64,000 nt of DNA from an uncultured Methanosarcinales archaeon (GTDB taxonomy: Archaea > Nanobdellota > Nanobdellia > Woesearchaeales > CAZOXR01). Below, piece by piece: positions 4,849 through 61,212 of the stretch. Position 1 is the stretch's first letter. Each line of letters opens with the position of its first letter. Below the pieces are notes generated by a model, which was given only the letters and a program-made list of their open reading frames with translations, was not told the DNA's origin and did no database searches. The stretch covers positions 247,751 through 311,750 of the forward strand of contig CAZMIO010000001.1 in the NCBI GenBank assembly GCA_964566535.1, given 5' to 3'. The translations under genes were made by a program, and so were the position numbers.

Positions 4849-4993
4849 TGTCGAAAACCACCATGCTAAATGAGTAGTATATTCCACATGCCACTAACAT
4901 ATGAGGTGGTTTTTGAGCATACTCAGAATACTGCTGAGGATATCTGTGATTTATGTAGTAAATCACCACTTTAGGAAGAGCAGTATTCTGATA
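4849..4993. repeat. Double-hairpin palindromic mini-element, copy 1 (expanded loops)
   Basis: TGTCGAAAACCACC..GGTGGTTTTTGA-GCATAC-TCAGAATACTGCT..AGCAGTATTCTGATA; same scaffold as 31075, 48620, 60438. Confidence 0.75.
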
Positions 4994-5063
4994 TATAATA
5001 TTTGCGTTTAAGTAACTAAAAATTTAAATAGACATTAGGTTTTGCTTTATTGAGGGAGATAAA

Positions 5064-5702
5064 GTGGATGAAACTAAAGAGATTGTTATTTCGTATGAGG
5101 CCCTTTTTGAGCTCTTAAGGAGGGAGAAGGATAGGGAGGCCTTACAGAAACTTAATGATTCTTTCTTCGAAGATGTTGTTAACTATATCCAGGATAAGAA
5201 AAAAAGTCTTTCTGAAAAAGAAGGTTCTTCGTCTTTGGGTGAAAGGGACAAGATAGATCAACAAATAAGGAATATTAAGAGAATCTTGAAGGAGTTGTAC
5301 GAGAGAAGGGAGAGGAAAATAATTAACCTTGCAATAGATAAAAGTAGGATTAAGGCTGAAGTTGATACTTCTATCTTACTGAAGGATGAAGAAGTTCTGT
5401 TCAAATCGATATTAAGTACGCTTAATGTTGGAAGGGAAGGGATTTTGAGTAATGTTCTTGAGGGCAAGGTTCCCGAGAATATCGAGGAGAAGAAGGAGGC
5501 TTCCGGGTTGGTAAAGGAAGCCAATAAAGGAGAGAAGAGAGATACTAAATTAATCAGATTTTTGCATGCTGTTCCTAGGTTTTTAGGCAAGGAGCTTGAG
5601 GAGTATGGTCCTTTTGAGGAAGAGGATGTTGCAAGCCTACCTTTTGAGATATCTAATGTGCTTATAGAGAAAGGGAGAGCTGAAGAGATTAGTGAGTATT
5701 GA
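5064..5702 (+). CDS. GINS complex subunit (Gins15-like)
   Basis: N-terminal helical A domain (LLRREKDREALQKLNDSFF, LYERRERKIINLA) and C-terminal B domain (IRFLHAVPRFLG..YGPFEEEDVASLP..LIEKGRAE). Confidence 0.8.
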   Translation: MDETKEIVISYEALFELLRREKDREALQKLNDSFFEDVVNYIQDKKKSLSEKEGSSSLGERDKIDQQIRNIKRILKELYERRERKIINLAIDKSRIKAEVDTSILLKDEEVLFKSILSTLNVGREGILSNVLEGKVPENIEEKKEASGLVKEANKGEKRDTKLIRFLHAVPRFLGKELEEYGPFEEEDVASLPFEISNVLIEKGRAEEISEY

Positions 5703-5727
5703 ACATAGGTTACGTTGATTGAATAAG

Positions 5728-19362: not shown

Positions 19363-19545
19363 TTGTATAACCTCCTAGTTATAGGAACAGACAATATTTA
19401 TTGAACATTGTTGTCTGTTCTTAATAGTAAAGGCACATTTATGTTCAAATACTGTGTCCTTTACTATATCATGTTCATTAGGAAACTATGATAGAATTAC
19501 CATGTCCCCAGTATAAGCGAGCTAATGTTTAACCTGCTTATCCAT
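19363..19545 (-). promoter_or_regulatory. Long structured 5' leader of rps15
   Basis: Four inverted repeats between TATA (TTTATAAA 19573-19580) and SD (AGGAGG, 19371-19376); loops of two hairpins are complementary. Confidence 0.55.
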
Positions 19546-30990: not shown

Positions 30991-31074
30991 TTAATCCTCT
31001 TTTTATCAATACGGTTAAATTTTTAATCCAATGGTTGAAATTTTTAATAAATAAAAAACGTGTTATATTGGCAT

Positions 31075-31128
31075 TGTCAGAAATCGAAGATTTCTGAACA
31101 TGCTCAGAAATGCCTTGCATTTCTGACA
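31075..31128. repeat. Double-hairpin palindromic mini-element, copy 2 (54-bp minimal form)
   Basis: TGTCAGAAATCGAAGATTTCTGA-ACATGC-TCAGAAATGCCTTGCATTTCTGACA. Confidence 0.85.
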
Positions 31129-31244
31129 TTCCTAGCCCTAAATAGTGAAGGGAAATTGCATATGGGAAATCTTGGATTCAAACTATATAAATATTGCCTT
31201 AAATACAAAACTTTATAAATTTCTAGGGGTTTTTTAGCTGTAAA

Positions 31245-31389
31245 CCCCATGTAGCTCAATGGCTAGAGCGTTCGGCTGTGACCAAGTAATTGGTGGCTAT
31301 AGATACGTTTTGACCATATGCGCAATGCAAGGGATGACTGGACGTCAGTCGTTACCGGAAGGTTGCTGGTTCAAATCCGGCTATGGGGA
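31245..31389 (+). tRNA. tRNA-Tyr(GTA) with two introns (35/36: 31280-31300; ~37/38: 31303-31353)
   Basis: Acceptor CCCCATG/TATGGGG with C1:G72 and A73; D arm GCTC/GAGC; T arm GCTGG-TTCAAAT-CCGGC; BHB removal of intron 1 restores CT-GTA-GA; TATA at 31212-31219. A single-intron reading would give His(GTG). Confidence 0.8.
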
Positions 31390-31393
31390 TATG

Positions 31394-31424
31394 AGGGACC
31401 ATGAGCAATCGTGGTTCCTTTTTT
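31394..31424 (+). terminator. Hairpin plus T-run after tRNA
   Basis: GGGACCATGA-GCAA-TCGTGGTTCC followed by TTTTTT. Confidence 0.6.
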
Positions 31425-46408: not shown

Positions 46409-47539
46409 ATGAATGAACCTATACCAAGTAATAGGATATTTAAGGCTTTGAAAGATAAGGGGTGCATAATACTTGCGTGCAATACTCGGATTACAATAGG
46501 TGTTGCAAAAGGTATTTTTAGGGCGGCTAAGGATTTAGATGCTGCTTTAATTACAGAATTGGCAAGGACTGAATGTAACCAACATGTTGGTTATTCTGGG
46601 TTGACTCCAGAAACATTGGCTAGGAATTTGAAAGAGGCTAATGAAGAAGTTGGACATGATATATGGGCACTACATGCTGACCATATTGGGATAAAGAAAG
46701 GAGATGCACAGGACATTTCGGATACAAAAGAGTTAATTGAGGCTCAGATTAAGGCAGGGTATACAAGCTTTGCAATTGATGCTTCGCATCTGTTTGATTT
46801 TGAAGGAAAAACAGTTGAGGAGGAGTTGGCGCCTAATCTAGCGGCAACTATTGAAATAGGGAAATTTATTCAAGAAAAAATGGCAGGCAATGAATTTGGT
46901 CTTGAGGTTGAGGTTGGAGAAATTGGTAGAAAGGGTGCCGAAGGTATGATACTTACAAAGCCAGAGGAAGCAGTTACTTATATTACAAAACTGCATGAAG
47001 CTGGAATTTCGCCAAATGTTATTGCTATTGCAAATGGTTCAACTCATGGAAATATTTATGATGGGGATGGCAAGCCAGTTGCTCAGGTTACAATTGATAT
47101 TGAGCAGACAAAAGCGGTTGCTGCGGCACTTAGAGATAATAAATTTGATGTTAGGATTGCACAGCATGGAATAACTGGAACTCCACTTGAGATCATTAAG
47201 GATAAGTTCCCACACGGAGATATTTTGAAAGGGAACGTTGCAACTTTGTTTCAGAACATTGTTTTTGACAATCTGAAGAAGTTCCATCCTGAACTGCATC
47301 AAGAGATGGTTGATTGGGTGCTTGAGAATAAGCCGATGGAAGGGAAAAACCCTGAGATGGTATTTGGAAGGAATGGTAAGTATGCTACAAAGGTGTTTTT
47401 TGACAAGATATATGCAATGAGTGATGAATGTAGAGCAGCTATTGAGGAAGAGTCATATAATGCTGCTTCAGATCATATTAAAGCGTTTAAGTCAGAAGGT
47501 AGTGCAGCTATTGTTAGAGAAGCGATGAAGAATGAGTAG
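46409..47539 (+). CDS. fba: Class II fructose-bisphosphate aldolase
   Basis: LHADH, IDASH, EVEVGEIG, NGSTHG, AQHGITG, KGNVAT. Confidence 0.88.
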   Translation: MNEPIPSNRIFKALKDKGCIILACNTRITIGVAKGIFRAAKDLDAALITELARTECNQHVGYSGLTPETLARNLKEANEEVGHDIWALHADHIGIKKGDAQDISDTKELIEAQIKAGYTSFAIDASHLFDFEGKTVEEELAPNLAATIEIGKFIQEKMAGNEFGLEVEVGEIGRKGAEGMILTKPEEAVTYITKLHEAGISPNVIAIANGSTHGNIYDGDGKPVAQVTIDIEQTKAVAAALRDNKFDVRIAQHGITGTPLEIIKDKFPHGDILKGNVATLFQNIVFDNLKKFHPELHQEMVDWVLENKPMEGKNPEMVFGRNGKYATKVFFDKIYAMSDECRAAIEEESYNAASDHIKAFKSEGSAAIVREAMKNE

Positions 47540-47594
47540 AATTTTCGGAAATTTATAGAAAAAACATATATACATAAAACTGGAGGAGAATAGA

Positions 47595-48617
47595 ATGGCA
47601 ATAAAAGTTGGAGTTATTGGATATGGGACGATTGGTAAGAGAGTAGCGGATGCTGTCAAGTTACAGGATGATATGGAATTAGTTGGAGTTACTGCTCATA
47701 GTTATAATTATAAAATGTTGGTGGCGGTTCAGAAGAAGATTCCAATCTATTCAATGAATGGTAAGGAAGAGATTGAAAAGAATGGGGTTGTATGTGTGGG
47801 GGATGTTAATGATTTGATTAAACAGGTAGATATTATTGTTGACTGTACTCCTAAAAAGATTGGGAAGGAGAACAAGGAGAAATATTATGTGCCAAGTAAG
47901 GTCAAGGCAATATTCCAGGGTGGGGAGAAAGCGGATATTGGTGAAGTAAGTTTTACTGCACAATGCAATTATGATAGTGCTGTTGGAAAGGATTACATAC
48001 GGGTTGTTAGCTGTAATACTACTGGACTTGCTAGGACTTTGAATGAAGTTCACAAAAAGTATGGCATTAAGGAAGTGCAGGCAACAATGATTCGGAGGGG
48101 AGCTGATCCGTGGGATATTTATCATGGACCGATTAATGCAATTGTTCCTGTTTTGGAACTTCCTTCGCACCATGGACCTGATGTTAGGACAGTATTGGAC
48201 GTTGAGATATTTACAACTGCAATAAGTGTTTCATCTACTTTGATGCATTTGCATACTTTGATAGTTGATTGTGAAAGAGAACCTAATGTTGAGGAAACTA
48301 TTAAGATGTTTCAGGATGCTACTAGAATAAGGGTGGTTGACAATGCGTCTAAGGTTAGGTCAACTGCAGAGATAATGGAGTTTGCAAAGGATCTTGGAAG
48401 AGACAGAAGCGATATGCCTGAGATTGTTGTCTGGAAGGAAGCAATTGGAGTTCATAAGAACAAGTTACTCTATATGCAGGCTGTACATCAGGAAAGTGAT
48501 GTTGTTTGTGAGAATATTGATGCTATCAGAGCAGCAACTGGATTTACAGATGGTCCTAAGTCAATAGAGATGACAAACAAGACATTATGTATTGATGAAT
48601 GTAAGAAGTTCTTTTAG
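47595..48617 (+). CDS. gap: Archaeal (type II) phosphorylating glyceraldehyde-3-phosphate dehydrogenase
   Basis: GYGTIGKRVADA, FQGGEK, VVSCNTTGL, SHHGPDV, VHQESDV..ENIDAIRA. Confidence 0.95.
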   Translation: MAIKVGVIGYGTIGKRVADAVKLQDDMELVGVTAHSYNYKMLVAVQKKIPIYSMNGKEEIEKNGVVCVGDVNDLIKQVDIIVDCTPKKIGKENKEKYYVPSKVKAIFQGGEKADIGEVSFTAQCNYDSAVGKDYIRVVSCNTTGLARTLNEVHKKYGIKEVQATMIRRGADPWDIYHGPINAIVPVLELPSHHGPDVRTVLDVEIFTTAISVSSTLMHLHTLIVDCEREPNVEETIKMFQDATRIRVVDNASKVRSTAEIMEFAKDLGRDRSDMPEIVVWKEAIGVHKNKLLYMQAVHQESDVVCENIDAIRAATGFTDGPKSIEMTNKTLCIDECKKFF

Positions 48618-48619
48618 TT

Positions 48620-48711
48620 TGTCGAGAATCGCCAGTCATATTTCAGTGGAATATTGCTGATTGTATCAGGCGATTCTTGAGCATGCTCAGAATTTTCTGA
48701 AAATTCTGACA
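48620..48711. repeat. Double-hairpin palindromic mini-element, copy 3 (expanded left loop)
   Basis: TGTCGAGAATCGCC..GGCGATTCTTGA-GCATGC-TCAGAATTTTCTGAAAATTCTGACA, between convergent genes. Confidence 0.82.
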
Positions 48712-48720
48712 TTTTATTTC

Positions 48721-49629
48721 TTATTTTTCTTCTAAATGGGTATTGAAGAAACCCACTACTTTCTCTTCATACTCTTCCGGGTAGTATTCATATGACTTTC
48801 TATGATCTGCTCCCTCAGTGATCCATATTTGTTTTGGCTGGTTTGCTTTATCGTATAGTCTCCTTGCTTCTTCGATGAATACCAATTTATCTGAGTCTCC
48901 TTGAATCATGAATATGGGGATGTTAACTTGGTCAATGTATCTTAATGGTGCCAAATCAAAAGCGTTGAAATCATTTAGTAGGCCTCCGAAGAATGTTAAG
49001 AGTGTTGCTAGAGGATATTTTGGCAGATTGTGAGTTCTTTTAAATCGTCTTCCGGTTACTTGGTGGATTGTTGCATAACTGCTGTCTAGGATTATTGCTT
49101 TTAGGTCGTTGGTTTCAATTGTTGCTAGAACTAAAGATGCTGCTCCCATTGATTGTCCTAATGCACCTAAGTTTTGGTTTATGTCATCTCTTGATTTTAT
49201 GTAATCAATTGCCCCAAGAACGTCGTTCTTTTCAAAATAACCTAGTGAGGTGAAGTCCCCATCACTATCTCCGAATGCGCGTAAGTCGAAGAGTAGGGAA
49301 CTGTAATTGTTTTTGTAAAGGTATGCTGAATGGTTTAGTAAGTCTTCTTTTGTATCGTTCCAGCCGTGGATTAGAAGGATTGTGCCTTTTGAATTGTCAT
49401 TTTTGATAAACCAACCTCTTAACATGATATTGTCTCTGCTTTTGAACTCAATGTCTTCGTAAGGTAATTGATGATCTTTCGGATGGCGGTTATTTGAGAA
49501 ATCTGCTGATCTTTTTGGATGTGTGAATTTATATGCTTGCTGGATTGAAACTATGATGAGTAGGATGAATAATATTAGGAAAATGTATAGAACTAAGTGG
49601 TTCTTCTTGTCTCTACCTCTTTTTTTCAT
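48721..49629 (-). CDS. Membrane-anchored alpha/beta hydrolase
   Basis: N-terminal TM; IHG, DLRAFGDS, GQSMG nucleophile, QGDSD, GADH. Confidence 0.88.
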   Translation of the reverse strand: MKKRGRDKKNHLVLYIFLILFILLIIVSIQQAYKFTHPKRSADFSNNRHPKDHQLPYEDIEFKSRDNIMLRGWFIKNDNSKGTILLIHGWNDTKEDLLNHSAYLYKNNYSSLLFDLRAFGDSDGDFTSLGYFEKNDVLGAIDYIKSRDDINQNLGALGQSMGAASLVLATIETNDLKAIILDSSYATIHQVTGRRFKRTHNLPKYPLATLLTFFGGLLNDFNAFDLAPLRYIDQVNIPIFMIQGDSDKLVFIEEARRLYDKANQPKQIWITEGADHRKSYEYYPEEYEEKVVGFFNTHLEEK

Positions 49630-49665
49630 TTAGAGTTAAATAGAAATAATATAATATAAACCTTT

Positions 49666-50556
49666 CTATATATTGTCTGTTGATTCTTCTGCTACATTTG
49701 ATGGTAATGCGAAGCCAATTCCTTCTCCGCCAGTTACTTTAAAGTTTGCTATGCCTATGATTTCTCCTGCTGTATTTAGGATTGGGCCTCCTGAATTTCC
49801 TGGGTTAATTGGGGTGTCTATTTGGATGTATGAGAATCCATTTGATGCTGTTCTTCTTGCACTGACAATCCCTTGTGTAACTGTGAAGTCTAGGCCTAGT
49901 GGATTACCTAATGCGATAACTGACTCTCCAACTCTAACATCATCTGAATCTCCGAAGAATAATCTGTTGAATTGAGTTTCGTTAGTGTCAATCTTTAATA
50001 CTGCAATGTCAGCTTTTGCATCAATCCCTAGTATGATTGCTCTGTGGATAGTTTTATCGTATGTTAAGATGTTTACTGTTGATGCACCATCAATTACATG
50101 GAAATTAGTTACAACTCTTCCATCTCTTGTGAAGATTGCTCCTGAACCTTGGCCTTTATCTGTTAATACAGATACTACCGATTCTAATGATTCATCAACT
50201 ATTTTTGAGAAGTCTGTTGATAGGGTTTCTATTGAAGTTATCTCTTTTTCTAACTCTTCTTTTGCCTTTTGTATTGATTCTTGTGATTCTGTCTGAACTG
50301 TAGTTATTAAGTCTAAGAGATCTTTATTGGTTTTCTTTGTTTCTTTATCTAGGTTTGAGATCAGATTTTGTAGTAAAGTCATATCGCTTTCTAGGAGTTC
50401 ATTAAGTTCAGAGATTTTTTGATTAGATTCTGTTTGTTGTTGTACTAGTTCTTGTTGGAGGAGGGTGATGTTGTTATAACCAATTACTGATAAAGATGAG
50501 ACTAGGACTACAGTGACTACGAGACTATATATGAATAACTTTTGGTGTTCTTCCAT
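49666..50556 (-). CDS. Trypsin-like (HtrA-type) serine protease without PDZ domain
   Basis: TM plus coiled coil; GSG, TNFHV, DIAVL, INPGNSGGP. Confidence 0.9.
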   Translation of the reverse strand: MEEHQKLFIYSLVVTVVLVSSLSVIGYNNITLLQQELVQQQTESNQKISELNELLESDMTLLQNLISNLDKETKKTNKDLLDLITTVQTESQESIQKAKEELEKEITSIETLSTDFSKIVDESLESVVSVLTDKGQGSGAIFTRDGRVVTNFHVIDGASTVNILTYDKTIHRAIILGIDAKADIAVLKIDTNETQFNRLFFGDSDDVRVGESVIALGNPLGLDFTVTQGIVSARRTASNGFSYIQIDTPINPGNSGGPILNTAGEIIGIANFKVTGGEGIGFALPSNVAEESTDNI

Positions 50557-50579
50557 AGAATATCTAATATATTGAAGAT

Positions 50580-51875
50580 TTAAATAGTCTGCCTTATAAT
50601 TTCTGCCCTTAGGTCAAAAGTAGTGATATTGTTTATTCTTGCATTCACTGTTTGGCCTAATTTTAGGTCTCCTTTTACAATAACTGGTTTGTAGGCAAAG
50701 TTTCTGCCAACCCAAGTGTTGTCTTTTCCCTTTTCGTCTATTAGAATAGGTCCTTCCCAGTTGTGATACCGTTCATTCTGCATTCTTGAGATGTTATGGA
50801 ATATGTCAGTTAGCATTCTTGAGCGGTCCTTTATTGTGTTTATGTCTAGCTGTGGGAGGTCTAGTGCTTTGGTGTTTGGACGAGGTTGGAATTTTGAGAT
50901 GTTTATTACGTCTGGTTTTATTTCTTTTATTAGGTTTAATGAATCGTCGAATTGTTCGTCTGTTTCTGTTGGGAATCCTACAATTATATCGGTTGCGATT
51001 GTGATATGAGGGATTTGCTCTTTGAATTTGTTAACTATGTCCTTGAATTGTGCTGTTGTGTAAGACCTGTTCATTAGTTTTAATACTTCGTCGTTTCCTG
51101 ATTGTACTGGGATGTGTAGAAATTTGAAAACTTTGTCGTTTTTATAGATATTTATTAAGTCATCTAAGATTGGGAGGACATTTCCTGGATTCATCATACC
51201 AAGTCTTAATTTGAACTCTCTGTTTGGCTCTAGAATCTGGTTTAGTAATGCAGGTAGGGTTGATGGGTGTTTGTTTTCTAATCCATATGCTGCATTATCT
51301 TGTGAAGTTACCCATAATTCCTTGCAGTCATTGTTTATTGAGTTTCTTACTTCTTTTAGGATCTCTTCAACTGGGTATGAAATCAAGTCTCCTTTTATTA
51401 GTTTTACAGAACAATAGGCACAAGATGAGTTGCAGCCTGAGAGGATTGGTATTATTCCTACTGTGCTGTTTTTTCTTATTCTTGGTAAGTTAAGTTTTAT
51501 TTCGTCTTCGTCTTTTGCAACTATGTCTATGAGGTTGTCATGAATCATCTCTTCAACGACTTCTGAGATTTTCTTTATGTTATGTGTTGAGATTAATGAT
51601 ACGTCTTCTGTTATTTCTCTGATCTTAGGTATTAATTCTGGTGGTATACATCCTGCTACGATTAATTTTTTGTCTCCATGTTCTTCGTTTAATTTTCTTA
51701 GTTCTCTTAATGCTGTTTTTTCTCCTTTTGCTGTGCAGATGTTTAATACTATTATGTCTGCTTCTTCTTTATCTTTGATTATGTTGAATCCTGAAGTAGT
51801 TAGGATGCCTTGCATTACTTCTGATTCTGAGAAGTTTGTTGAACAGCCATGGGTCTGGAAATATATCTTTGTCAT
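50580..51875 (-). CDS. tRNA t6A37 methylthiotransferase (archaeal MtaB/MiaB-like)
   Basis: THGC..N, CNSSCAYC, HIPVQSG, DIIVGFPTET, C-terminal TRAM. Confidence 0.88.
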   Translation of the reverse strand: MTKIYFQTHGCSTNFSESEVMQGILTTSGFNIIKDKEEADIIVLNICTAKGEKTALRELRKLNEEHGDKKLIVAGCIPPELIPKIREITEDVSLISTHNIKKISEVVEEMIHDNLIDIVAKDEDEIKLNLPRIRKNSTVGIIPILSGCNSSCAYCSVKLIKGDLISYPVEEILKEVRNSINNDCKELWVTSQDNAAYGLENKHPSTLPALLNQILEPNREFKLRLGMMNPGNVLPILDDLINIYKNDKVFKFLHIPVQSGNDEVLKLMNRSYTTAQFKDIVNKFKEQIPHITIATDIIVGFPTETDEQFDDSLNLIKEIKPDVINISKFQPRPNTKALDLPQLDINTIKDRSRMLTDIFHNISRMQNERYHNWEGPILIDEKGKDNTWVGRNFAYKPVIVKGDLKLGQTVNARINNITTFDLRAEIIRQTI

Positions 51876-51964
51876 AGGTTTTGGGAGTTAGAACAGGGGT
51901 TATAAATGTTACTGGAAGTTGAATAATTTGTATAGGACTACCTAACCACATTAGAACTAAATTG

Positions 51965-52090
51965 TTAATCTATTACAAAGCCGCACTTTTTACAGTATCT
52001 TTCGGCTTTATCCCTGATTATCTCTTCTGAGCCGCAATCAGGGCATTTCTTTACTTCTTCTATTTTTGGTCTTTGTTGTATTTCTTGCAT
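51965..52090 (-). CDS. Stand-alone TFIIB-type zinc ribbon protein, 41 aa (not in ORF track)
   Basis: MQEIQQRPKIEEVKKCPDCGSEEIIRDKAERYCKKCGFVID*. Confidence 0.75.
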   Translation of the reverse strand: MQEIQQRPKIEEVKKCPDCGSEEIIRDKAERYCKKCGFVID

Positions 52091-52194
52091 TTTTAGTAGG
52101 TTTTACCCAGTTCCAGCTATCTCTTTTTTTATCTTAGGATAAGTCACCCTTACCTAACTCTGAAACCACCTTTCACCCGCTTAAAGTATCAAAT

Positions 52195-53583
52195 TTAGGT
52201 ATTTATAAATGTTTTGCCTTCCTTAAGGAGTAACTCTGCTTTTTCTTTAGACTTAGAATCTGCCATTATTCTTAGAATTCCTTGCTCTGTTTTAGACTGT
52301 CTGAACCACAGAAAAGCGTCTTTTGTTATAATCTTTAGGCCACCTGTTGGTCCTGTTTCTTGGATTCTGAATCCTTTTTTTAAGTAGAATTGTTTAATCT
52401 TTTTCTTTATTTCTGCTGTTTTTTCTGGATTTATGCTTACTTTGTCTTTTAGAGTGTAGTAGACAGGATAATCTTTGATTATTTCGTTTAATGGCTTTTT
52501 TCTTTTTGCTATTAGCTTTAGGATTGATAGGAGAGTTAGAATTCCGTCTCTGCATCTTGAAGAGGGGATTATTGCACCTGCTGACGAGCCTTCCCCACCA
52601 ATTGGAGAGTTGTTTATGACCATTGCGTTAACTACATTAATTTCCCCAACTTCTGTTTCTACTAGTTTAGTCTTATATTTATCTGCGATTTCCTTTACTA
52701 AGTAGGATGTTGCATCGTTTACTGCAATTGTTTGCGATTCTGGGTTTTTTTGTTCTTCTAGGATTTGGTCAACCACTAATGCCAATACATATTGACCTGA
52801 TACCATATTTCCATCTTTTAGTAGAATTTCAACTCTATCTGCATCGCAGTCAAAGCCAGCTGCGAAATCTGCGTTAAGTTCATTTAATTTGGTTTTTAAT
52901 GATTTTAATGAGGATTCGTTTGGTTCGATTGTTCTTTTGAATTCCCCCTGTTTTGTGTTGATTGCAATGAAATTTTTGTTTATTTTTTTTAATATGTCAA
53001 TATTTGTAATTCCTGCTCCGCCGTTTGGGTCTAAGAGAACTTTTATGTTTAGTTTTTTTATTTGTTCGATGTGTTTTTTCCCTATTGTTTTGATTATGAA
53101 ATTGTAGTAACGGGCTTTTATGTCTTCGTGTTGCTTTTGGATTTCGTGGACTGTAGGGTCTTTTTTATGGATGAGGTCTAAGAACTCTTCTTCTTTTAGG
53201 TCTTTTATCTTATGGAAGTTTTTTATTACTTCTGAGGCTTTTTTTGGGTCTAATACTGCACCATCGCTGTCTAGGAACTTAAAACCATTCCATTCTGGTT
53301 CGTTATGGGAGGCAGTTATTATGATTCCTCCGTCTGCCTTATATTCTCTCACTGCTAATTCTGTCATTGGTGTTGTTGCAACTTCTAAATCTATTATATT
53401 TTTGAATATGTCAAAGATTGCTTGTTTTAAGGGTTCTGCTGAGGCCCTTGTGTCTGTTCCGATAACTACTTTAGGGTCTTTTTTTAGTGTTTGAGAATAA
53501 GCATACGCGTACTTTCTAGTTATGTCTTCATTTAGGTCTTTTTTGTAGATTCCCCTTATTCCTGAAAATGATTCTACTAGCAT
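52195..53583 (-). CDS. Phosphohexomutase (PMM/PGM/GlmM family)
   Basis: SGIRG, ITASHNE, DCDADR, GEGS, RQSKTE; start set at MLVESFSG. Confidence 0.9.
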   Translation of the reverse strand: MLVESFSGIRGIYKKDLNEDITRKYAYAYSQTLKKDPKVVIGTDTRASAEPLKQAIFDIFKNIIDLEVATTPMTELAVREYKADGGIIITASHNEPEWNGFKFLDSDGAVLDPKKASEVIKNFHKIKDLKEEEFLDLIHKKDPTVHEIQKQHEDIKARYYNFIIKTIGKKHIEQIKKLNIKVLLDPNGGAGITNIDILKKINKNFIAINTKQGEFKRTIEPNESSLKSLKTKLNELNADFAAGFDCDADRVEILLKDGNMVSGQYVLALVVDQILEEQKNPESQTIAVNDATSYLVKEIADKYKTKLVETEVGEINVVNAMVINNSPIGGEGSSAGAIIPSSRCRDGILTLLSILKLIAKRKKPLNEIIKDYPVYYTLKDKVSINPEKTAEIKKKIKQFYLKKGFRIQETGPTGGLKIITKDAFLWFRQSKTEQGILRIMADSKSKEKAELLLKEGKTFINT

Positions 53584-53674
53584 AAGCGGTTGAGAGAGTG
53601 TATGATTTATAAGGTTTTCTTTGAGATTGTGTTTTTCAATAGATTTAAATACATTAAATTTAATGAGATAGTTT

Positions 53675-54112
53675 ATGGCGAAAAAAGTCAAACAAAAAAA
53701 GAGTAAGAAATATGTTAGGGTTTGTCCGAAGTGTAAATCTGGTAGCGTTAGGATGGACAAATCTACTCTGCAGCAGACTGGTGCTCTTCCAACCATGTAT
53801 ATCTGTGGAAGATGTGGGCATTCTGGTAATAGTTTTCCTGAAGTTGAAATATCTAAGTTAAAGGGGTTTGAGAAAGAGGTTGATAAGAAACATCTTAGGT
53901 TTACAAAGAAAGATAAAACTGAGTTGATTGATACTTCTTATGGTGAGTTTGAAGTTAAGATTATATGGAAGGTTTTGTCTATTGTATTCTTTTTAGCAGG
54001 TATTTTTTATCTTACTGTAGAATCAGTTTCTGGAGCTATCTTACTCCTAATTGGAATATTTATGTTCTATATCACTTATTTTGAGAAAAGAAAATTAAAA
54101 AGAACTAATTAG
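53675..54112 (+). CDS. Zn-ribbon protein with two C-terminal TM helices
   Basis: CPKC..CGRC; two hydrophobic segments. Confidence 0.65.
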   Translation: MAKKVKQKKSKKYVRVCPKCKSGSVRMDKSTLQQTGALPTMYICGRCGHSGNSFPEVEISKLKGFEKEVDKKHLRFTKKDKTELIDTSYGEFEVKIIWKVLSIVFFLAGIFYLTVESVSGAILLLIGIFMFYITYFEKRKLKRTN

Positions 54113-54696
54113 ATTTTACCTTTTGTAGAAGGAATGTCATCTAATGCTCTCTTGTCTTTTGAGCATGCCATTTTCATTGCTTTTCCAAAAGCTTTGAAGA
54201 TTGATTCTGCTTTGTGGTGGTCTGTTCTAGCCTCAAATGATTTTACATGGATATTTGCTTTTAGTTCGTTAGCGAAACCTTGGAAGAACTCTGAGATGCA
54301 GTCTGATTCTAGGTTGTTGATTTTTTCTTTTTTGAATTCTGCTTCGAAGTTAAGGTATGGTCTGCCAGCTATGTCAACTGCGAAGATTGATAATGTTTCA
54401 TCCATGGGAAAAGCAAAAAAGCCAGTTCTGTTGATGCCTTTTTTGTCAGCTAGGGCTTTTCCGAATGTTTGCCCTAGTACAATTCCAATATCTTCTATTG
54501 TGTGGTGCTGGTCAACTTGTAGGTCTCCTTTTGCATCCACTTTTAGGTTGAATAATCCGTGTTTTGCGAATAATTCTAGCATGTGATCTAGAAATCCGAT
54601 TTGAGTGTTAATTTTTGATGTGCCTTTGCCGTCTATATTTAGCTCTACTTTAATCTGTGTTTCTTTTGTTTTTCTTTCGATTGTTGCTTTTCTCAT
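54109..54696 (-). CDS. hisB: Imidazoleglycerol-phosphate dehydratase
   Basis: RKTKET, GFLDHML, DQHHTIED, PMDE, DHHKAES.FKA, PSTKG. Confidence 0.96.
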   Translation of the reverse strand: MRKATIERKTKETQIKVELNIDGKGTSKINTQIGFLDHMLELFAKHGLFNLKVDAKGDLQVDQHHTIEDIGIVLGQTFGKALADKKGINRTGFFAFPMDETLSIFAVDIAGRPYLNFEAEFKKEKINNLESDCISEFFQGFANELKANIHVKSFEARTDHHKAESIFKAFGKAMKMACSKDKRALDDIPSTKGKI

Positions 54697-55358
54697 TTTA
54701 CTACTTTTATTATGTTGTTTATGTTAGATATGGTATGGTCTGCACTTTTAAATACTTTCCTTAATTTCTTCTTATCTCCGTAAGGTGGGATGACTCCAAT
54801 AAATGGAATCTTTGCTTTTTTTGATGCATTGAAGTCGTCTATTGAGTCTCCAACGTAAAATGTCTTTTTTGGTTTAACTGAGTTTATAATCTTTTTTATG
54901 CCTTCTGGGTTAGGTTTTTTCTTTTTGACATCATCTACTGTGATTATTTTTTTGAAGTATTTTTTTAGTTTATAGTGTTTTAATGTGAATGAAAGTTCTT
55001 TTTTTGACCTGCCTGTGAATATGGCTAATGTGTTGTTTTTAGCTAGTTTCTTTATTACTGATGTTTTTAGGAGAAGCTTTTCTTTTCTTATCAATCCGTT
55101 GAAGTTTCTTCCTAGATAGTATTCCTCGAATTTTTTGATTATTTCTTTTCTTTTGATTCTTTTCTTGTGTTTCTTTAGGATTGCGTCTGTGCAGTCAAAA
55201 TCATCATTGAATCCAGTCTTTAGTTTTTGTTGATAAACTTCTTTCATGTCTATCTTTTTCTCTAGGAAGAATTCTACTGTCTTTTTTGTTGCAACCCTAA
55301 ATGATCTAGATACATCTATTAGGACTCCGTCAACATCGAATATGATTAATTGTTTCAT
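54693..55358 (-). CDS. HAD hydrolase, candidate histidinol-phosphatase
   Basis: FDVDGVLID, FTGR, KP.PEG, VGDSIDD; translationally coupled to hisB. Confidence 0.75.
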   Translation of the reverse strand: MKQLIIFDVDGVLIDVSRSFRVATKKTVEFFLEKKIDMKEVYQQKLKTGFNDDFDCTDAILKKHKKRIKRKEIIKKFEEYYLGRNFNGLIRKEKLLLKTSVIKKLAKNNTLAIFTGRSKKELSFTLKHYKLKKYFKKIITVDDVKKKKPNPEGIKKIINSVKPKKTFYVGDSIDDFNASKKAKIPFIGVIPPYGDKKKLRKVFKSADHTISNINNIIKVVK

Positions 55359-55365
55359 TTTAATG

Positions 55366-55785
55366 TTATTTCTTGAACAGGCTTTTAAACTTTTTGTATC
55401 CTTCTTTTTCTAGGTCTTCTTTTGGTATGAAATTTAGTGAAGCTGAATTTATGCAGTATCTTTTTTTGGTGGGAGGTGGGCCGTCATCAAAGACGTGGCC
55501 GAGATGTGAGGATGCTTTTTTGCTCTTAACTTCAGTTCTTGTCACCCCTAATGTTTTGTCTTGCTTCTTTACTACGTTTTTTTGGTCTAATGGTTTGGTA
55601 AAGGATGGCCAGCCGGTTCCTGATTTAAATTTGTCTGTTGAGCTGAATAATGGTTCTCCTGAAACAATATCGACATAAATTCCTTCTTTCTTGTTATTCC
55701 AGTATTCGTTTTTGAAAGGTGGTTCTGTACCGCACTTTTGGGTTACTTCCTCTTGTAGAGGTGTTAATTTTGGTTTCTTTTTCAT
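55366..55785 (-). CDS. msrB: Methionine-R-sulfoxide reductase
   Basis: [33 protein letters not shown]. Confidence 0.95.
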
Positions 55786-56393
55786 TATCCCCAGATTCTT
55801 TTTAATGTTTGTTTTCTGCCAGAGCCTGCTTCATAGATCTTATATTGGACTGTTCGTTTTTGAGAGTAATCTTGATGGTATTCTTCTGCTTTGTAGAAGT
55901 CTTTTAGTGGCAGAATCTTAGTTACAACTGGTTTTTTGAGTGTTCCTGATTCGTCTAAATCTTTCTTTGATTTTTCAGCTGCTTTCTTCTGGTCTTCAGT
56001 ATGGTAGAAGATTGCTGTTTTGTACTGTGAGCCACGGTCTACAAACTGGCCTTCATCATCAGTTGGATCTATTGATTTCCAGAAAAGATCGAGTAATGTT
56101 TCGTATGTGGCGATTTTAGGATCGTAGACAATTTGGATTGCTTCATGGTGTCCAGTTGTGCCAGTTGTAACTTCTTCATAAGTCGGGTCAACTTTATCTC
56201 CACCAGTATATCCGGAATAAACATCTATTACTCCTTCGCTGCCTTCGAAAGCAGCTTCTGTACACCAGAAACATCCGCCTGCAAATGTTGCAACTTCATA
56301 ATCTTTGATGTCGTACTCTTTTTTTGGTTTTTGTTCCATGTCTGTACACCCCGTTAAGATTATTAATAGTAAGATTAATGGTAAATATCTCAT
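55785..56393 (-). CDS. msrA: Methionine-S-sulfoxide reductase with lipoprotein signal
   Basis: [30 protein letters not shown]-terminal [16 protein letters not shown] lipobox. Confidence 0.95.
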
Positions 56394-56527
56394 TTTTTAT
56401 CTTGTTTCTCTTCTGCTTTCCTTTCGGCTTCCCTCATCACTTTATTATGATTCCATTGTCCGAATAAAATCCAATATAGGGCTAGGAAGCCAGTTAATGA
56501 TAGAAATATCAATAATCCGTTATTCAT
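56390..56527 (-). CDS. Small single-TM protein, 45 aa (not in ORF track)
   Basis: [49 protein letters not shown] overlaps with both the hisC stop and the msrA start. Confidence 0.75.
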   Translation of the reverse strand: MNNGLLIFLSLTGFLALYWILFGQWNHNKVMREAERKAEEKQDKK

Positions 56528-57582
56528 TTTCCAAGGATTTCCCTTAGTGTCTGGATGAATTGTTTTGCTTGTGAGCTTGTTCCAATGCTTACTCTGAGGC
56601 AGTCTTTTAGTAAAGGTAAATGACTTCTGTCTCTGACTAGGATTCCTTTTTCTTTAAGTTGGTCTTTGATTTCTATTGCTTTTTTTCCGAAGTTTGCGAT
56701 TAAGAAGTTACCTGTTGTTGGGAATGTTTTTATTTTGAGTTGTTTTAATCCTTCTTCGAGCACTTTCTTTCCTTTCTTTACTTCACCCACATACCACTTT
56801 AAGTAATCCTGGTCATCTATTGCTGTTGATGCTGCAACCATTGCTGCTGTATTTACTGAATAAGGTGAAGCTACTCTTTTTAGGTTTTTAATGTTATCTG
56901 GGTCTGATGCAATGTAGCCCAATCTTAATCCTGCTAAACCATATGCTTTTGAGAATGTTTGAAGAATGAATAGATTGTCGAATTTTCCTATTAGGCCAAG
57001 TGCTGTTTCTTCGCTGAATTGGTAATAAGCTTCGTCTATGATTACTATGGTTTCTGTTTTTGCTGCCTTTTCTACAATCTTGAATAAATCTTTTTTTTCA
57101 ATTGGAGTTCCTGTTGGATTATTTGGGTTAACTAAGATTAGTATTTTTGTTTTTTTAGTTATTGCGTCAAGTACTTTTTTTGTTGGGAATGTAAGGTTTT
57201 TTGCGTATGAAACACTCTTTACCTTTGCCTCTGCAATATCTGCATAAACTCTGAACATTGTAAATGTGGGTATTGGGATTACTATTTCGTCTCCTTTTTC
57301 TATGTAAGTATCGTATATTACTTTGATTGCTTCGTCGCTTGCGTTTGTTAACAATATTTCTTGAGGCGATACGTTTATATTTGATGCTATTTTGTTGATG
57401 AACTTAGTATATTCTGGATAGCAGGCAAACTCGTTGTCATTTAGCTTTTCTAATGCTTTTAGAACTCTTGGAGAAGGTCCTACTGTGTTTTCGCTGAAGT
57501 CTAATCTAAGTTTATCTCTTCTTCCCTCTAATGGGGGGTCGTAAGGTTCCATTTCCTGTACTGCTTTTTTTGGTAAAATCAT
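56524..57582 (-). CDS. hisC: Histidinol-phosphate aminotransferase
   Basis: NPNNPTG, DEAY, TFSKAYGLAGLRLG, LRVSIG. Confidence 0.93.
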   Translation of the reverse strand: MILPKKAVQEMEPYDPPLEGRRDKLRLDFSENTVGPSPRVLKALEKLNDNEFACYPEYTKFINKIASNINVSPQEILLTNASDEAIKVIYDTYIEKGDEIVIPIPTFTMFRVYADIAEAKVKSVSYAKNLTFPTKKVLDAITKKTKILILVNPNNPTGTPIEKKDLFKIVEKAAKTETIVIIDEAYYQFSEETALGLIGKFDNLFILQTFSKAYGLAGLRLGYIASDPDNIKNLKRVASPYSVNTAAMVAASTAIDDQDYLKWYVGEVKKGKKVLEEGLKQLKIKTFPTTGNFLIANFGKKAIEIKDQLKEKGILVRDRSHLPLLKDCLRVSIGTSSQAKQFIQTLREILGK

Positions 57583-57616
57583 TTTTTGGTTAATATTATC
57601 ACTATCAGAAGTGGTA

Positions 57617-58879
57617 CTATTTAAACCTTACTTCTATTGACTTTCTGTGTGCATCTAGGCCTTCTGTTTTTGCTATTGTGGTTATTGTTTCTTTTAGGCT
57701 GTTTAATGCTTCTTTTGTTAAGTGTTGGAATGAAGGTGTTTTTATGAAATCTAGGGTGCTTAATCCTGCCCTGCTTTTTGCAAATTGTCCTGTTGGTAGG
57801 ACGTGGTTGTTTATAGCATAGTCTCCTACTGCTTCTGCGCTGTAGGGGCCTAGGAATATTGCTCCTGCGTTGTTTACTTTTTTTAGTAGCTCTTGGTCGT
57901 CGCTTATGATTTCTAGGTGTTCAGGAGCAAAATCATTGATCAAATCGAATGCTTGGTCTATATTGTCTGCTATGATTATTGCTCCGTAAGTGTTGATTGA
58001 TTTTGAGGCTATTGTGGATGTTGATAGGTTGTTTAATTGTGATTTGACTTCGTCTTTTACTTTTTCTGCTAGTTCTTTGTTTGTTGTTACTAGTATGCTT
58101 GATGCTAAGACATCGTGTTCTGCTTGTGAGATAAGGTCAGCTGCGATTATTTTTTCATCTCCTTGTTCTGCGAATATCATTATCTCTGAAGGGCCTGCTA
58201 GGAAATCTAATCCTACATCTCCGTAGACTAGTTTTTTTGCTGCTGTTACAAAGATATTTCCTGGACCAACTATTTTGTTAACTTTTGGAATTGTTTCTGT
58301 TCCGTAGGCCATTGCTGCAATTGCTTGTGCGCCACCTACTCTGAATATTTTGTCTGCTCCTGCTATGTCTGCTGCTACGATTATTGTGTCAATGTTTTCC
58401 TTTGGTGGAGTGCAGACAATTATTTCTTTAACTCCTGCTACTTTTGCTGGGATTACTGTCATTAAAGCAGTTGATGGTAAGGGGAAGTTTCCTCCAGGTA
58501 CGTAGCATCCTACGCTGTCAAGAGGTCTTATTAATTGTCCAACAGTTATCCCTTTTCTTATCTGCTTTTTCCACTCTTTTGGTAATTGTAATTCTGCGCA
58601 CTGTTTGATTGTTTCTTTTGCTTGCTTTATTGCTTTTATGATGTTTTTGTCAACTTTTTTGTATGCTTTTTCAATTTCTTGTTTTGAGACTTGAATTTGG
58701 CTTTTTGTTAATTCTGCTGAATCGAATTTTTTGGAGTAGTTAATTAGTGATTTATCTTTGAATGTTTTTACGTCCTTAATTATTGGTTTTACTTTATTTA
58801 GAGCTAACTCTAAGTTTTCTTTTGATCTTTGCTTTATTTTTTCTATTTCTTGTTTGTCTTTTGAGGTTATTATGTTCAT
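57617..58879 (-). CDS. hisD: Histidinol dehydrogenase
   Basis: YVPGG, GGAQAIAAMAYG, GPGN.FV.AK, AGPSE, SQAEHD, APEHL, NHVLPT. Confidence 0.96.
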   Translation of the reverse strand: MNIITSKDKQEIEKIKQRSKENLELALNKVKPIIKDVKTFKDKSLINYSKKFDSAELTKSQIQVSKQEIEKAYKKVDKNIIKAIKQAKETIKQCAELQLPKEWKKQIRKGITVGQLIRPLDSVGCYVPGGNFPLPSTALMTVIPAKVAGVKEIIVCTPPKENIDTIIVAADIAGADKIFRVGGAQAIAAMAYGTETIPKVNKIVGPGNIFVTAAKKLVYGDVGLDFLAGPSEIMIFAEQGDEKIIAADLISQAEHDVLASSILVTTNKELAEKVKDEVKSQLNNLSTSTIASKSINTYGAIIIADNIDQAFDLINDFAPEHLEIISDDQELLKKVNNAGAIFLGPYSAEAVGDYAINNHVLPTGQFAKSRAGLSTLDFIKTPSFQHLTKEALNSLKETITTIAKTEGLDAHRKSIEVRFK

Positions 58880-59478
58880 TTTCTTTTTTTATAACGTCCT
58901 CTGGTTTCTACTACTTCTAGTCTTTTTAAAACTTCCTTTCCTTTCTCTGATTCTTTTTGGTATGTTTTTATTATTGTGTTGAAGGATTTTTCCCAGATTT
59001 TGTGATGTTTTGATTCTAATGCTTGTCTTAATAGGTGTAGGTCAATTGCCATGTCTTCTACTTTGTATGAGGTGAATGATAAGCCGAAATCTATGAAGTA
59101 TATTTGGTCTTGGTATATCATGTTTGAGGTTGTTAGGTCTCCGTGGATTAAGTTGTTATTGTGTAGGGTTGCTACTTTTTTTCCAATTTCTTCTGAAAGT
59201 TTGATGTAATTGCCTTTTTCTAAGACGTCTTTTAGTTCTTCCCCTTTTAGGTATTCCATCTCTAATGTTTGTTTGTCATCTGAGGATATTAGTTTAGGGG
59301 CTGGGAAACTGATAAGGTTAAGTTTGTCAAGGATTTTTGCTTCTTTTTTTGTTCTTGACTTTCTTAGTTTGTTATCTATTTCTTCTATCCTGTATGTTTT
59401 CCTGAATCTGTCTTTAGTTATTGTGCTTTTTTCTAGGAAAATCTTTGCTTCTGCTCCTTGTGAAATTAACTTTTTCAT
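58876..59478 (-). CDS. bud32: KEOPS complex kinase Bud32
   Basis: QGAEA, HGDLTTSN, IDFGL, EDMAIDL, RGRY. Confidence 0.93.
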   Translation of the reverse strand: MKKLISQGAEAKIFLEKSTITKDRFRKTYRIEEIDNKLRKSRTKKEAKILDKLNLISFPAPKLISSDDKQTLEMEYLKGEELKDVLEKGNYIKLSEEIGKKVATLHNNNLIHGDLTTSNMIYQDQIYFIDFGLSFTSYKVEDMAIDLHLLRQALESKHHKIWEKSFNTIIKTYQKESEKGKEVLKRLEVVETRGRYKKRK

Positions 59479-59562
59479 GATAGATTATAGAATTCTTGGA
59501 TGTTTTTAATCTTTTGTATTTTGGGAAAGTTTTTAAATGTGATTTTAATACTTTTATGTTAT

Positions 59563-59716
59563 AGCCCTATAGTCTAGTGGTCAAGGATAAGAGGTTCTGG
59601 GCCTTTTGGCGGCAGTTCGAACGACTGATTACGCTCGGTCGACACGCAAGGTGCGGCATAAAGCCCCACGTGCTCGCTAAACGCTCGCAATCAGTGCGAA
59701 AGTCTGCCTAGGGCTA
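59563..59716 (+). tRNA. tRNA-Gln(CTG) with 81-nt intron at position 59/60 (59622-59702)
   Basis: Acceptor AGCCCTA/TAGGGCT with A73; anticodon arm AGAGG-TT-CTG-GG-CCTTT; T arm GGCAG-TTCGAA|T-CTGCC; BHB with central TTCG/CGAA; TATA at ~59531-59538. Confidence 0.88.
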
Positions 59717-60253
59717 TTTTTCCTTCTTGTAAGTTCCCATCAATTCAGCTTTTGCTAGGGTATGTTTTTCTATCTTTTCTAAGAAGTTGTCTTTTGTCAC
59801 GTCTGTTAATGATTCTATGTCTAATGCGTAGAGCTTGAAGAAATACCTGTGAGTTCCTGTTGGTGGACATGGACCTCCGTACTCTTCTTTTCCTAAATCA
59901 TTTGTAACTTGTTTACCTGGAACTGAGTTTTGAGGTATCTGCGCTACATCTGCTGGAATGTCATAAACTAACCAGTGTGTCCATGTACTGGTTGGAGCAT
60001 CTGGGTCATCTACAATTAATGCGAAGCTTTTTGTTTCCGATGGTGCGTCTTCCCACTTTAAATGTGGATTTTTATTTGTACCCTGACATGTAAAATCTTT
60101 CGGGATTTGATCTTCATTCTCAAAGTCTTTGCTTGTTAGTATCATAGTTTTGGCCTCCTGTTGGATTGTGATTGGTTCGTTGGTATTGGTTTGTTCGGTT
60201 GAACAAGATGTTAAAAACAGCACTAGTATTGCAGTTAATAAAATTTTATTCAT
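59714..60253 (-). CDS. YbhB/YbcL (PEBP family) protein with lipoprotein signal
   Basis: FLTSC lipobox; DDPDAP..WTHW, YGGPCPP.G.HRYFF.LYALD. Confidence 0.9.
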   Translation of the reverse strand: MNKILLTAILVLFLTSCSTEQTNTNEPITIQQEAKTMILTSKDFENEDQIPKDFTCQGTNKNPHLKWEDAPSETKSFALIVDDPDAPTSTWTHWLVYDIPADVAQIPQNSVPGKQVTNDLGKEEYGGPCPPTGTHRYFFKLYALDIESLTDVTKDNFLEKIEKHTLAKAELMGTYKKEK

Positions 60254-60288
60254 ATAAGTATAATTTAGATGATGGTTAATAAATATTA

Positions 60289-61212
60289 CTATTCAGAACT
60301 AGGAGCTTCTTCGGATTTTGGTTCTGTTCCTGAGCTTTCTTCTACTGGTGATTGTTCTGGTTTTTCTTCTGGTTTTTCTTCTACTGGTTCAGCTTCTTTT
60401 TTCTCTTCTTTTTCTGATCTTTGAGAATCTTTAGGCTTGTCTGAAATCGAAGATTTCTGAGCATGCTCAGAAAAGCTTCGCTTTTCTGACATCTCTAACC
60501 CTTTCTCGTTTTCACTCGAAAGTTTTGATTCTTCTTTTGTCTCTTCTTGTTTCTCTTCTGCTGGCTTGGTCTCTTTTGGTTCTTCGTTATCTTCAACTAT
60601 CTCAACTTCTTCTTCTAATCCTTCAATCTTTCTTAGTTCTTCAATTGCTAGGTACCTTATTTCACAGATACCTAAAGGATAAATCTTTCTTAAGTGTGAT
60701 TTTAAGAAACTTTGAAGTTTGTGAGAAACTAGACCGTTTAAAATGTCTTCATAACTTGATTTCTTTAAGGTTTTAGTCAAGAAATCAACTGTCTCTTTTC
60801 TTAAACTTGTTTCAGTAGAACCTTTTGTGGTGATCTTGATTAATAGGATTGGCTTAACTCTTATTCTCTTGTTATCTGATGTGTGGCAAATGAATGAGAT
60901 GTCCACCCGTTTTTTACCCTTTCTGATAAGTCTCTTTAGAGAAGCAGGGATTATTTCATAACCTATAATTTCAGTTAATGCTTTATCTTCTTTAATTGAT
61001 TTTATCTGGAATTTGATGTTGATGTTTTGTTTTTTTGAATCATTAATAAGATTCATTAGATTTACGCTTACAGTTTTACCAATAAGTTCGTTTGGTTCGT
61101 TGGCTAGTGTTTCCCCTAGTGGATTCTCCCTAAGTAGCTTAGGTGCAATAATCTGGAACCATTTCTTATGCTTTACTTTTAATATTTTCTTCTCTTCTTT
61201 AGTTTCTGCCAT
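60289..61212 (-). CDS. rps3ae: 30S ribosomal protein eS1 (S3Ae) with Glu/Lys-rich C-terminal tail
   Basis: KKWFQIIAP, LGET.A..P..LIG, KIYPL..CEIR; long acidic tail. Confidence 0.9.
   Translation of the reverse strand: MAETKEEKKILKVKHKKWFQIIAPKLLRENPLGETLANEPNELIGKTVSVNLMNLINDSKKQNINIKFQIKSIKEDKALTEIIGYEIIPASLKRLIRKGKKRVDISFICHTSDNKRIRVKPILLIKITTKGSTETSLRKETVDFLTKTLKKSSYEDILNGLVSHKLQSFLKSHLRKIYPLGICEIRYLAIEELRKIEGLEEEVEIVEDNEEPKETKPAEEKQEETKEESKLSSENEKGLEMSEKRSFSEHAQKSSISDKPKDSQRSEKEEKKEAEPVEEKPEEKPEQSPVEESSGTEPKSEEAPSSE
60438..60491. repeat. Double-hairpin palindromic mini-element, copy 4 (54 bp, in-frame in rps3ae)
   Basis: TGTCTGAAATCGAAGATTTCTGA-GCATGC-TCAGAAAAGCTTCGCTTTTCTGACA; encodes MSEKRSFSEHAQKSSISDK. 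Confidence 0.88.
60501..60522 (-). repeat. Tandem-GA mini-hairpin inside rps3ae
   Basis: Minus strand CTTTC-GA-GT-GAAA-AC-GA-GAAAG. Confidence 0.5.

Follow-up and report, generated by a model that had tools for sequence, protein, structure and literature searches.

What are the paired hairpins that recur four times in a 64,000-nucleotide stretch of an archaeal genome, and by what means could such short sequences have arrived there? The stretch (hereafter the window) runs from position 247,751 to 311,750 of contig CAZMIO010000001.1 in assembly GCA_964566535.1, deposited as an uncultured Methanosarcinales archaeon and placed by GTDB within the Woesearchaeales. It corresponds to C1:247751-311750 of the source genome, here labelled G000 (1.45 Mb, 35.5% GC, 91% complete); labels beginning with G denote genomes, with C contigs, and with L element loci or loci of Y1 transposases, and a slash within a motif marks a cut or an insertion point. 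All four copies reported in the initial annotation are present at 4849, 31075, 48620 and 60438, each reading exactly TGTC...GA(C/T)A. The evidence set out below indicates that they very probably represent a mobile, non-autonomous element, for which a single-strand transposase acting in trans is our tentative explanation.

The element reads TG-[TCRRRA...TYYYGA]-GCATGC-[TCRRRA...TYYYGA]-CA, that is, two hairpins around a six-base centre. Its size varies from about 48 to 165 bp. Among 266 non-redundant copies the modal length was 54 (44 copies), and 194 of them were B-first heterodimers, in which an A arm (TCRAAA) is paired with a B arm (TCRGAA); the strand given for a copy is always its B-first strand. 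When the ends of 215 B-first copies were left unconstrained, the termini proved to be TG in 215/215 and CA in 211/215, the base at -1 was A in 192/215 and the base at +1 was free, while the terminal inverted repeats spanned 8 bp (TGTCRRAA...TTYYGACA). In the consensus proposed earlier, the leading T and final T belong to the flank, and the left hairpin ending TTYTGA that was ascribed to all four copies is contradicted by copy 3, whose left arm ends TCTTGA.

The window holds no fifth copy. The centre motif TTYYGA-RCATRC-TCRRAA, searched with at most one mismatch, nevertheless occurs at 41 places in G000, while five order-4 Markov genomes gave 0 each, and a double-hairpin finder made 39 calls, which puts the family at about 40 copies genome-wide. 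When the order was sampled through 401 genomes with a completeness of at least 85%, the exact centre pattern was detected in 62, occurring 1-23 times apiece and patchily inside families; the other orders of the class, sampled through 130 genomes, yielded none, and reversed-pattern controls gave 0. Three of the 62 carriers (G125, G188 and G305) are unpublished and enter this tally only. With two patterns, 0 IMG/VR virus contigs were matched, and PLSDB likewise yielded 0 plasmids. The named records containing the pattern bear the titles Woesearchaeota, Nanoarchaeia/Nanoarchaeota, Pacearchaeota (once) and "Methanosarcinales", the last of which we do not take as a second phylum because two such records share loci with genomes of this order; the host is accordingly taken to be probably of Woesearchaeota type. 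The common orientation remarked upon for the four copies holds in the window and not across the genome, where 22 centres lie on the plus and 17 on the minus strand (12 contigs tabulated). One-way runs do occur, such as 11 of 13 copies on G000 C2 and, on G159 C7 (7147-641966), six copies followed by five reversed ones; GC skew does not explain them, that of G159 C7 being uninformative. G000 C1-C3 themselves display a uniform and very strong third-position strand skew (~0.3-0.5) over whole contigs, unlike most sampled relatives.

The most direct evidence of mobility comes from empty sites. Copy 4 is housed in a second in-frame coding repeat (peptide KLSSENEKGLEKPK...), whose paralogues elsewhere in G000 are exactly empty and read GAGA/AGCC. 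Further exact empty sites were obtained for uL3, for the three copies L060, L126 and L127, inserted at TAATA/AG within another double-hairpin repeat (against C20:7343), for L032 (against L097), for L059 (against L026 and L109) and for L123 (against C2:32277). These cases come from 27 queries with a match, many of which were self-matches or low-complexity and were excluded. At all exact empty sites the insertion is precise and target duplication is absent. For copy 2 the junction differs by 1-2 bases from the unbroken relatives of its host repeat, and it is hence not counted as an exact empty site; for copy 3 no empty allele appeared in the four runs compared over window positions 46500-62000, the only region examined, and it was matched without differences by contigs from X6, X9 and X12, runs that carry no flag as the source. 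A joint that skips copy 4 in two runs, with a side of 26 bases, was considered as an excision and is read instead as an empty paralogous repeat.

Such precision bears directly on the proposal that the element is a MITE, a miniature transposable element with inverted repeats, of a DDE transposase with TG...CA ends, as in IS481/IS3-like elements. The invariant TG...CA and the 8-bp terminal inverted repeats would be expected of it, and the survey of PMC11602168 places a Woesearchaeota genome with the archaea of highest MITE density. The lack of target duplication largely refutes it, however, and the abutted tandem junctions and one-sided target described below do not suit it either. Moreover, rve was found in 1/5 carriers (not in G000), and stem covariation supports local hairpins rather than end-to-end pairing. 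We therefore regard a MITE as very unlikely. Among neighbouring open reading frames (ORFs), no autonomous insertion sequence (IS) with the same ends was seen.

The target itself follows a one-sided rule. Its consensus 5' of the B end is T-T-T-T-R-A-W-A/: ANA is found in 160/194 copies at the B end, compared with TNT in 39/194 at the opposite end and a background of 9%. This flank resembles the element's own A (right) end, TTTTGACA, at 4.5/8 positions, against 3.0 for the other flank. Once the flanks are rejoined, 32 of 235 sites (13.6%) re-form a strong hairpin, compared with 4.4% of shuffled pairs and 8.5% of contiguous DNA, and no fixed register or fixed target hairpin was apparent among them; this may reflect a modest preference for other palindromes as targets.

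Insertion has also reached coding sequences. Of the 266 copies, 12 lie in open frames that extend for 40 or more codons on either side, and 11 have a length divisible by three; two of the 12 (L071 and L088) look spurious. With S3Ae and another protein added, which we take to be DUF371-like, about 12 in-frame insertions result, contributing 17-38 residues and nearly all using the SEHAQK frame. When uL3, GatA and GatE are aligned with their G000 orthologues, the gap measures exactly 18 residues in each case. By the same length, copy 4 extends ribosomal protein S3Ae in its acidic C-terminal tail, outside the S3Ae domain (residues 10-215). Neither this in-frame position nor the location of copies 2 and 4 inside other dispersed repeats had been remarked upon in the initial annotation. 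In G159, a small gene is divided into two frames by a long copy (L193:12560-12710, on C7), which suggests that the insertion is recent.

The spread of the family is recent in G330 and G159, where unrelated loci hold entire long copies with 99-100% identity; it follows that the arms travel with the element. Together with the empty sites and the confinement to one order, this bears out the earlier suspicion of a lineage-restricted, non-autonomous mobile family, and none of the outcomes named in advance as refuting that suspicion was observed. Tandem 54-bp units abut through GACA/TGTC junctions at G000 C9:37312-37473, and mosaics occur at C10:23620-23895. ORFs lie between two element clusters at G000 C25:1814-3292, presumably, judging from motifs, a small ribbon-helix-helix-like gene and a HEPN/nucleotidyltransferase-like pair.

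Which form of the element is recognised can be approached through its stems. In 110 short copies picked regardless of structure, the two local hairpins are 97.3% Watson-Crick paired, as opposed to 72.8% for a single rod, and stem positions swap A-T and G-C, in agreement with the covariation first suspected from the four window copies. Read from each arm's own TG end, the wobbles are G·T in 45 cases and A·C in 8 (20:1 in A, 25:7 in B); these counts come from 16 (A) and 15 (B) sources, and as the copies are related, a p value would be overstated. Because of this preference, each hairpin has presumably been selected as a single-stranded nucleic acid, the two on opposite strands. All eight strand-folds of the four window copies have z values from -3.9 to -5.7, with 0/200 shuffles folding equally well, and fold prediction has the centre paired to the terminal TG and CA, so that one G and one C bulge out.

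The loops are more varied than the window suggested. Their length ranges from 3 to about 100 nt, the stem begins RR and the tail is GAGCA. The GAA triloops remarked upon in the window copies are a minority and find no support as a family trait, C-GNA-G occurring in 39 and GCGAAGC in 7 of 220 short-hairpin loops, of which CAAAG and CTTTG are the commonest. Long arms are nested palindromes, and the earlier idea of loop cargo is not supported, 0/30 long loops or arms of G000 matching the masked rest of the genome. CTTYAG loops occur in 43/261 long arms, with a strand ratio of 35:5 favouring the B-first strand; since CTTYAG also occurs in the IS200 ends examined, we take it as an IS200/IS605-type loop motif. 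A few 14-15-nt matches link long arms with IS200 loci, and the core arms were unmatched in 30 Y1 loci.

The same wobbles weigh on the idea that the element acts as RNA, whether as terminator, stabiliser or small RNA, and spreads by reverse transcription, for example through the enzymes of diversity-generating retroelements (DGRs). Copies are indeed mostly intergenic and near gene ends, and one lies upstream of the template repeat of a DGR that comprises a target gene with variable repeat, the template repeat and a reverse transcriptase (L015:631-3073). Against it, the wobbles speak for opposite strands for the two hairpins; orientation is unrelated to transcription in co-oriented gene pairs (23 vs 19), and the Rfam scan of the window gave no match for the element above the gathering score, its sole match being a tRNA. 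Additionally, the Pfam scan of neighbouring ORFs, covering 112 of 242 adjacent ORFs (one representative of each cluster lacking a G000 homologue, less a few that looked spurious), yielded no transposase and one reverse transcriptase, that of the DGR. Of the explanations weighed here, we find this the least credible.

We tentatively favour a model in which an IS200-type HUH (Y1) transposase, provided in trans, moves the element in the form of single-stranded DNA, a proposal to which we would grant almost, though not quite, an even chance. It is preferred because the precise 3' insertion, the absence of duplication, the abutted tandems, the self-like target and the strand-specific hairpins match IS200/IS605 single-strand transposition as described in PMC3201880 and PMC5934647; the CTTYAG loops of some long arms also speak for it. 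According to PMC3201880, IS608 inserts 3' of a short target, with nothing gained or lost, and its ends are abutted in the circle, and in archaea PMC6006769 reports IS200-type TnpA as the only kind, its account recording no REP-associated TnpA subclasses. By analogy, a Y1 enzyme would bind the folded hairpins and make its left cut at ANA/TG and its right cut at the ACA/ of the element itself, each conforming to ANA/; a circle with a GACA/TGTC junction would be released and then joined 3' of a site resembling the right end, so that insertion behind an existing copy would yield tandem arrays. Y1_Tnp is, moreover, present in 35/62 carriers compared with 101/339 other genomes (odds ratio 3.1), or in 35/59 compared with 99/337 when five unpublished genomes are left aside, figures to which a general, uncontrolled load of mobile DNA may contribute.

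A considerable body of observations weighs against this proposal. The hairpins lie 2 nt from the cuts, compared with 19 and 10 nt in IS608, and the wobbles would put them on opposite strands, whereas peel-and-paste transposition uses one. Y1_Tnp gave no match in G000, at its 91% completeness, nor in 27/62 carriers; there were 0 Y1 matches among the 1237 ORFs of 241 element loci, in assemblies that are incomplete, and 0/30 Y1 loci were flanked by the element. Inside 22 mixed families the enrichment falls to an odds ratio of 1.9 (p 0.14) and is not significant. A TnpA clade that at first seemed confined to carriers is found in 7/62 of them and in 12/339 others, and TGCT and GACA, considered as guide sequences, misfit the published pairing rule, for which no fitting guide was found. 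Orientation shows no bias relative to GC skew, the A arm coming first on the G-rich strand in 18/39 copies of G000, despite its strong skew, and in 12/25 elsewhere. The linked RAYT, TnpA or HUH gene and the strand bias that the initial annotation proposed to look for were thus not found; of its suggestion of mobilisation in trans as single-stranded DNA, the strand-specific hairpins speak for the single strand and the HUH/Y1 enzyme found no such backing. The apparent sharing of the ANA/ target by local IS200 ends (18/20 calls) was set aside as largely void, the last base at the right end being encoded by the IS itself at the IS608 positions given in PMC3201880.

Other enzymes were sought with little more success. 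Clustering of the 1237 ORFs gave no recurring enzyme; among five carriers, IS110 was found in 0/5, G000 being included in the negatives, and resolvase in 2/5 (not G000).

Could a host tyrosine recombinase, XerA- or integron-integrase-like, act on the folded strand as on attC? The gCATGc centre would pair with the TG/CA ends, leaving an unpaired G and C, and TTTTGACA would be a binding arm mimicked by the target half-site. In keeping with this, the predicted folds of short arms run through the TG/CA pairs with a single bulged base, the likeness of the target spans about 8 bases and so exceeds a tetranucleotide, and the arms GTCRRR and YYYGAC resemble the integron core sequences GTTRRRY and RYYYAAC. 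The XerA-family gene (NF040815 above cut-off) is near-universal, being present in 19/22 carriers and 18/22 non-carriers, and if it were the mobiliser it would therefore account both for the lack of a linked gene and for the confinement to a single order. The crossover, however, lies midway along the folded duplex, while tyrosine recombinases make their cuts where a spacer of 6-8 bp begins or ends. G000 encodes two tyrosine recombinases/integrases, neither with an adjacent copy; close homologues of the second occur in 2/22 carriers and 1/22 non-carriers. The element, furthermore, varies in its arms and attC in its centre, and its copies are dispersed instead of spacing gene cassettes beside the G000 integrases. 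We accordingly consider such a recombinase an unlikely mobiliser.

A hairpin-specific single-strand nuclease, Ssn-like or of another kind, might alternatively nick beside the TGTC tag and leave host repair or template switching to copy the element, a route already proposed for CGTC/TGTC-tagged REP dimers. Each half, TGTC plus stem-loop plus short tail on its own strand, is arranged head-to-head as in the CGTC/TGTC REP dimers of PMC3733652, SsnA is described as cutting single-stranded DNA directly 5' of such a tag on one strand only (PMC11893778), and the nested palindromes of the long arms, unmatched elsewhere in the genome, would also be in keeping with it. Yet the GIY-YIG matches in the five carriers were 507-530-aa frames (in 2/5), with no small GIY-YIG comparable to the 94-aa Ssn, and no single-domain GIY-YIG ssn gene was found near the element. 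Its stem lacks the AT start and its tail is not CCA, whereas the stem of CGTC/TGTC REPs has 8-9 bp from AT, with a loop of 4-5 nt and an unpaired CCA tail. Repair, finally, is hard to square with ends so exact, and this route appears improbable to us.

There is also a bolder reading, which we consider rather doubtful: the 54-nt DNA might be a pure recombination substrate, its centre pairing with both ends in a bulged rod, which a housekeeping or unrecognised Woesearchaeota enzyme, belonging to no described transposase family, inserts beside end-mimicking sites. If true, few replicating genetic parasites known so far would be smaller than the element, and it would be one of a wider modular set of hairpins that nest mutually, put IS200 transposase genes out of action and lengthen essential proteins by extra peptides. 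We place the family in such a set because divergent hairpin elements interrupt IS200 tnpA genes, one to three times each (L237:110-860, L226 and L230; G133 and G241); these relatives include four-hairpin arrays with other spacers.

Compared with published repeats, the element has close affinities to SMR-A of Haloquadratum walsbyi, which PMC3119063 describes as archaeal, of non-coding length, with terminal inverted repeats unrelated to known transposons, without target duplication, present in tens of copies per genome, entering other palindromic mobile DNA and of unknown mobiliser. SMR-A, however, is about 110 bp long and more than 95% conserved, compared with 48-165 bp and variable arms here, and mainly targets PATE/IS605 palindromes, whereas the re-forming of a hairpin concerns the minority of our sites given above. 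A two-hairpin core, a one-sided target and in-frame insertion do not figure in what PMC3119063 says of SMR-A, the comparison being by description and not by sequence; its families HqIRS42, HqIRS43 and HqIRS55 share no sequence with each other (PMC3119063). With PATEs and IS200/IS605 (PMC3119063, PMC3201880, PMC5934647) the element shares two hairpins, no duplication, 3' insertion at a one-sided target, abutted ends and, in some long arms, the CTTYAG motif; PATEs, derived from IS605 ends, are described as having no terminal inverted repeats (PMC3119063), whereas the element has them, and its hairpins lie 2 nt from the ends, apparently on opposite strands, with no parent IS found.

REPINs (PMC3337134) and CGTC/TGTC REP dimers (PMC3733652, PMC11893778) are likewise made of two tagged inverted hairpins with the tags outside and strand-specific G·T pairs, and are described as forming tandem or mosaic clusters, having intragenic copies and inserting into host palindromes. 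As in a REPIN, two inverted hairpin units move as one. The element differs from REPINs in having no spacer past GCATGC, in pairing the TC of its tag into the stem, in its clear A/B polarity with a one-sided target, and in the absence of a RAYT flanked by the repeat (0/30 Y1 loci, 0 in 241 element loci and none in G000, in incomplete assemblies). Rickettsia palindromic elements (RPEs, 105-146 bp, PMC3184786) similarly sit in frame in unrelated, often essential genes and add the same peptide; by description, the element is distinguished by being shorter (18 residues), archaeal, built on a two-hairpin core and mainly intergenic. It fails one defining feature each of PATE (terminal repeats), REPIN (RAYT), CGTC REP (stem, tail and ssn) and MITE (duplication). 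In the literature searched, whose scope excluded most subscription papers and ISfinder, we met no description of the family, which is apparently new to print, and the catalogue of PMC11602168 may hold copies.

How protein-less palindromic repeats such as SMRs, RPEs, CGTC REPs and REPINs move without target duplication has been a long-standing gap, and the present family offers a sharp substrate for addressing it: its ends and empty sites are exact, its target rule is one-sided, its 54-nt minimal form is available commercially as an oligonucleotide, and candidate enzymes in a genome of 1.4 Mb are few. It also illustrates that selfish DNA thrives in reduced DPANN genomes, where it lengthens ribosomal and tRNA-related proteins by 17-38 residues.

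Table 1. Element copies and associated features in the window (window positions; for copies, the B-first strand)
Feature	Position	Strand	Remarks
Copy 1, 145 bp, long A/B form	4849..4993	-	TG 4849-4850, hairpin A 4851-4916, centre GCATAC 4917-4922, hairpin B 4923-4991, TA 4992-4993
Target half-site of copy 1	4994..5001	-	reads ...ATA/, consistent with ANA/
Dispersed host repeat broken by copy 2	30991..31175	.	unbroken relatives C10:15155, C6:21830, C1:189720, C16:14441
Copy 2, minimal 54 bp B/B form, centre ACATGC	31075..31128	.	between P-type ATPase gene (28300-30990, -) and tRNA gene (31245-31389, +)
Copy 3, 92 bp A/B form	48620..48711	-	between convergent stops of GAPDH (47595-48617, +) and 48721-49629 (-)
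Ribosomal protein S3Ae gene, 315 aa, with copy 4 inside	60289..61236	-	NF003142, E 8e-47, under model cut-off
Second in-frame coding repeat housing copy 4	60419..60527	-	empty paralogues C1:2117, C13:20050, C10:8400, C14:484, C11:12080
Copy 4, minimal 54 bp B/B form, in frame	60438..60491	-	MSEK...ISD frame

The surroundings of the four copies are listed in Table 1. Copy 1 is intergenic, 24 bp ahead of the start of a radical SAM gene (3631-4824, minus strand), and the target flank of copy 3 is AAA/ on the minus strand. The repeat that hosts copy 2 constitutes a fourth dispersed family, with about 12 partial matches across G000. The tRNA gene that follows it, 145 bp long with an insert of about 70 nt, was found by Rfam and missed by ARAGORN, and the 228-aa ORF behind it (31411-32097), which weakly matches (E 5e-11) a GyrA model that contains an intein, in the intein part of that model, possibly encodes a homing-endonuclease-like domain.

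The KLSSENEKGLEKPK... repeat around copy 4 is itself made of two small hairpins and forms, in frame, part of several proteins' charged tails, with sites in G000 at C1:2117, C10:8400 and 8459, C11:12080, C13:20050, and C14:484 and 564. A third double-hairpin family, TATAG-hairpin-TCGTAATA-hairpin-CTATA, is represented in the window at ~19380-19470 and elsewhere in G000 at C20:7341-7440, C2:4443, and C8:14250 and 21633; in several genomes, this TCGTAATA-centred family hosts the element.

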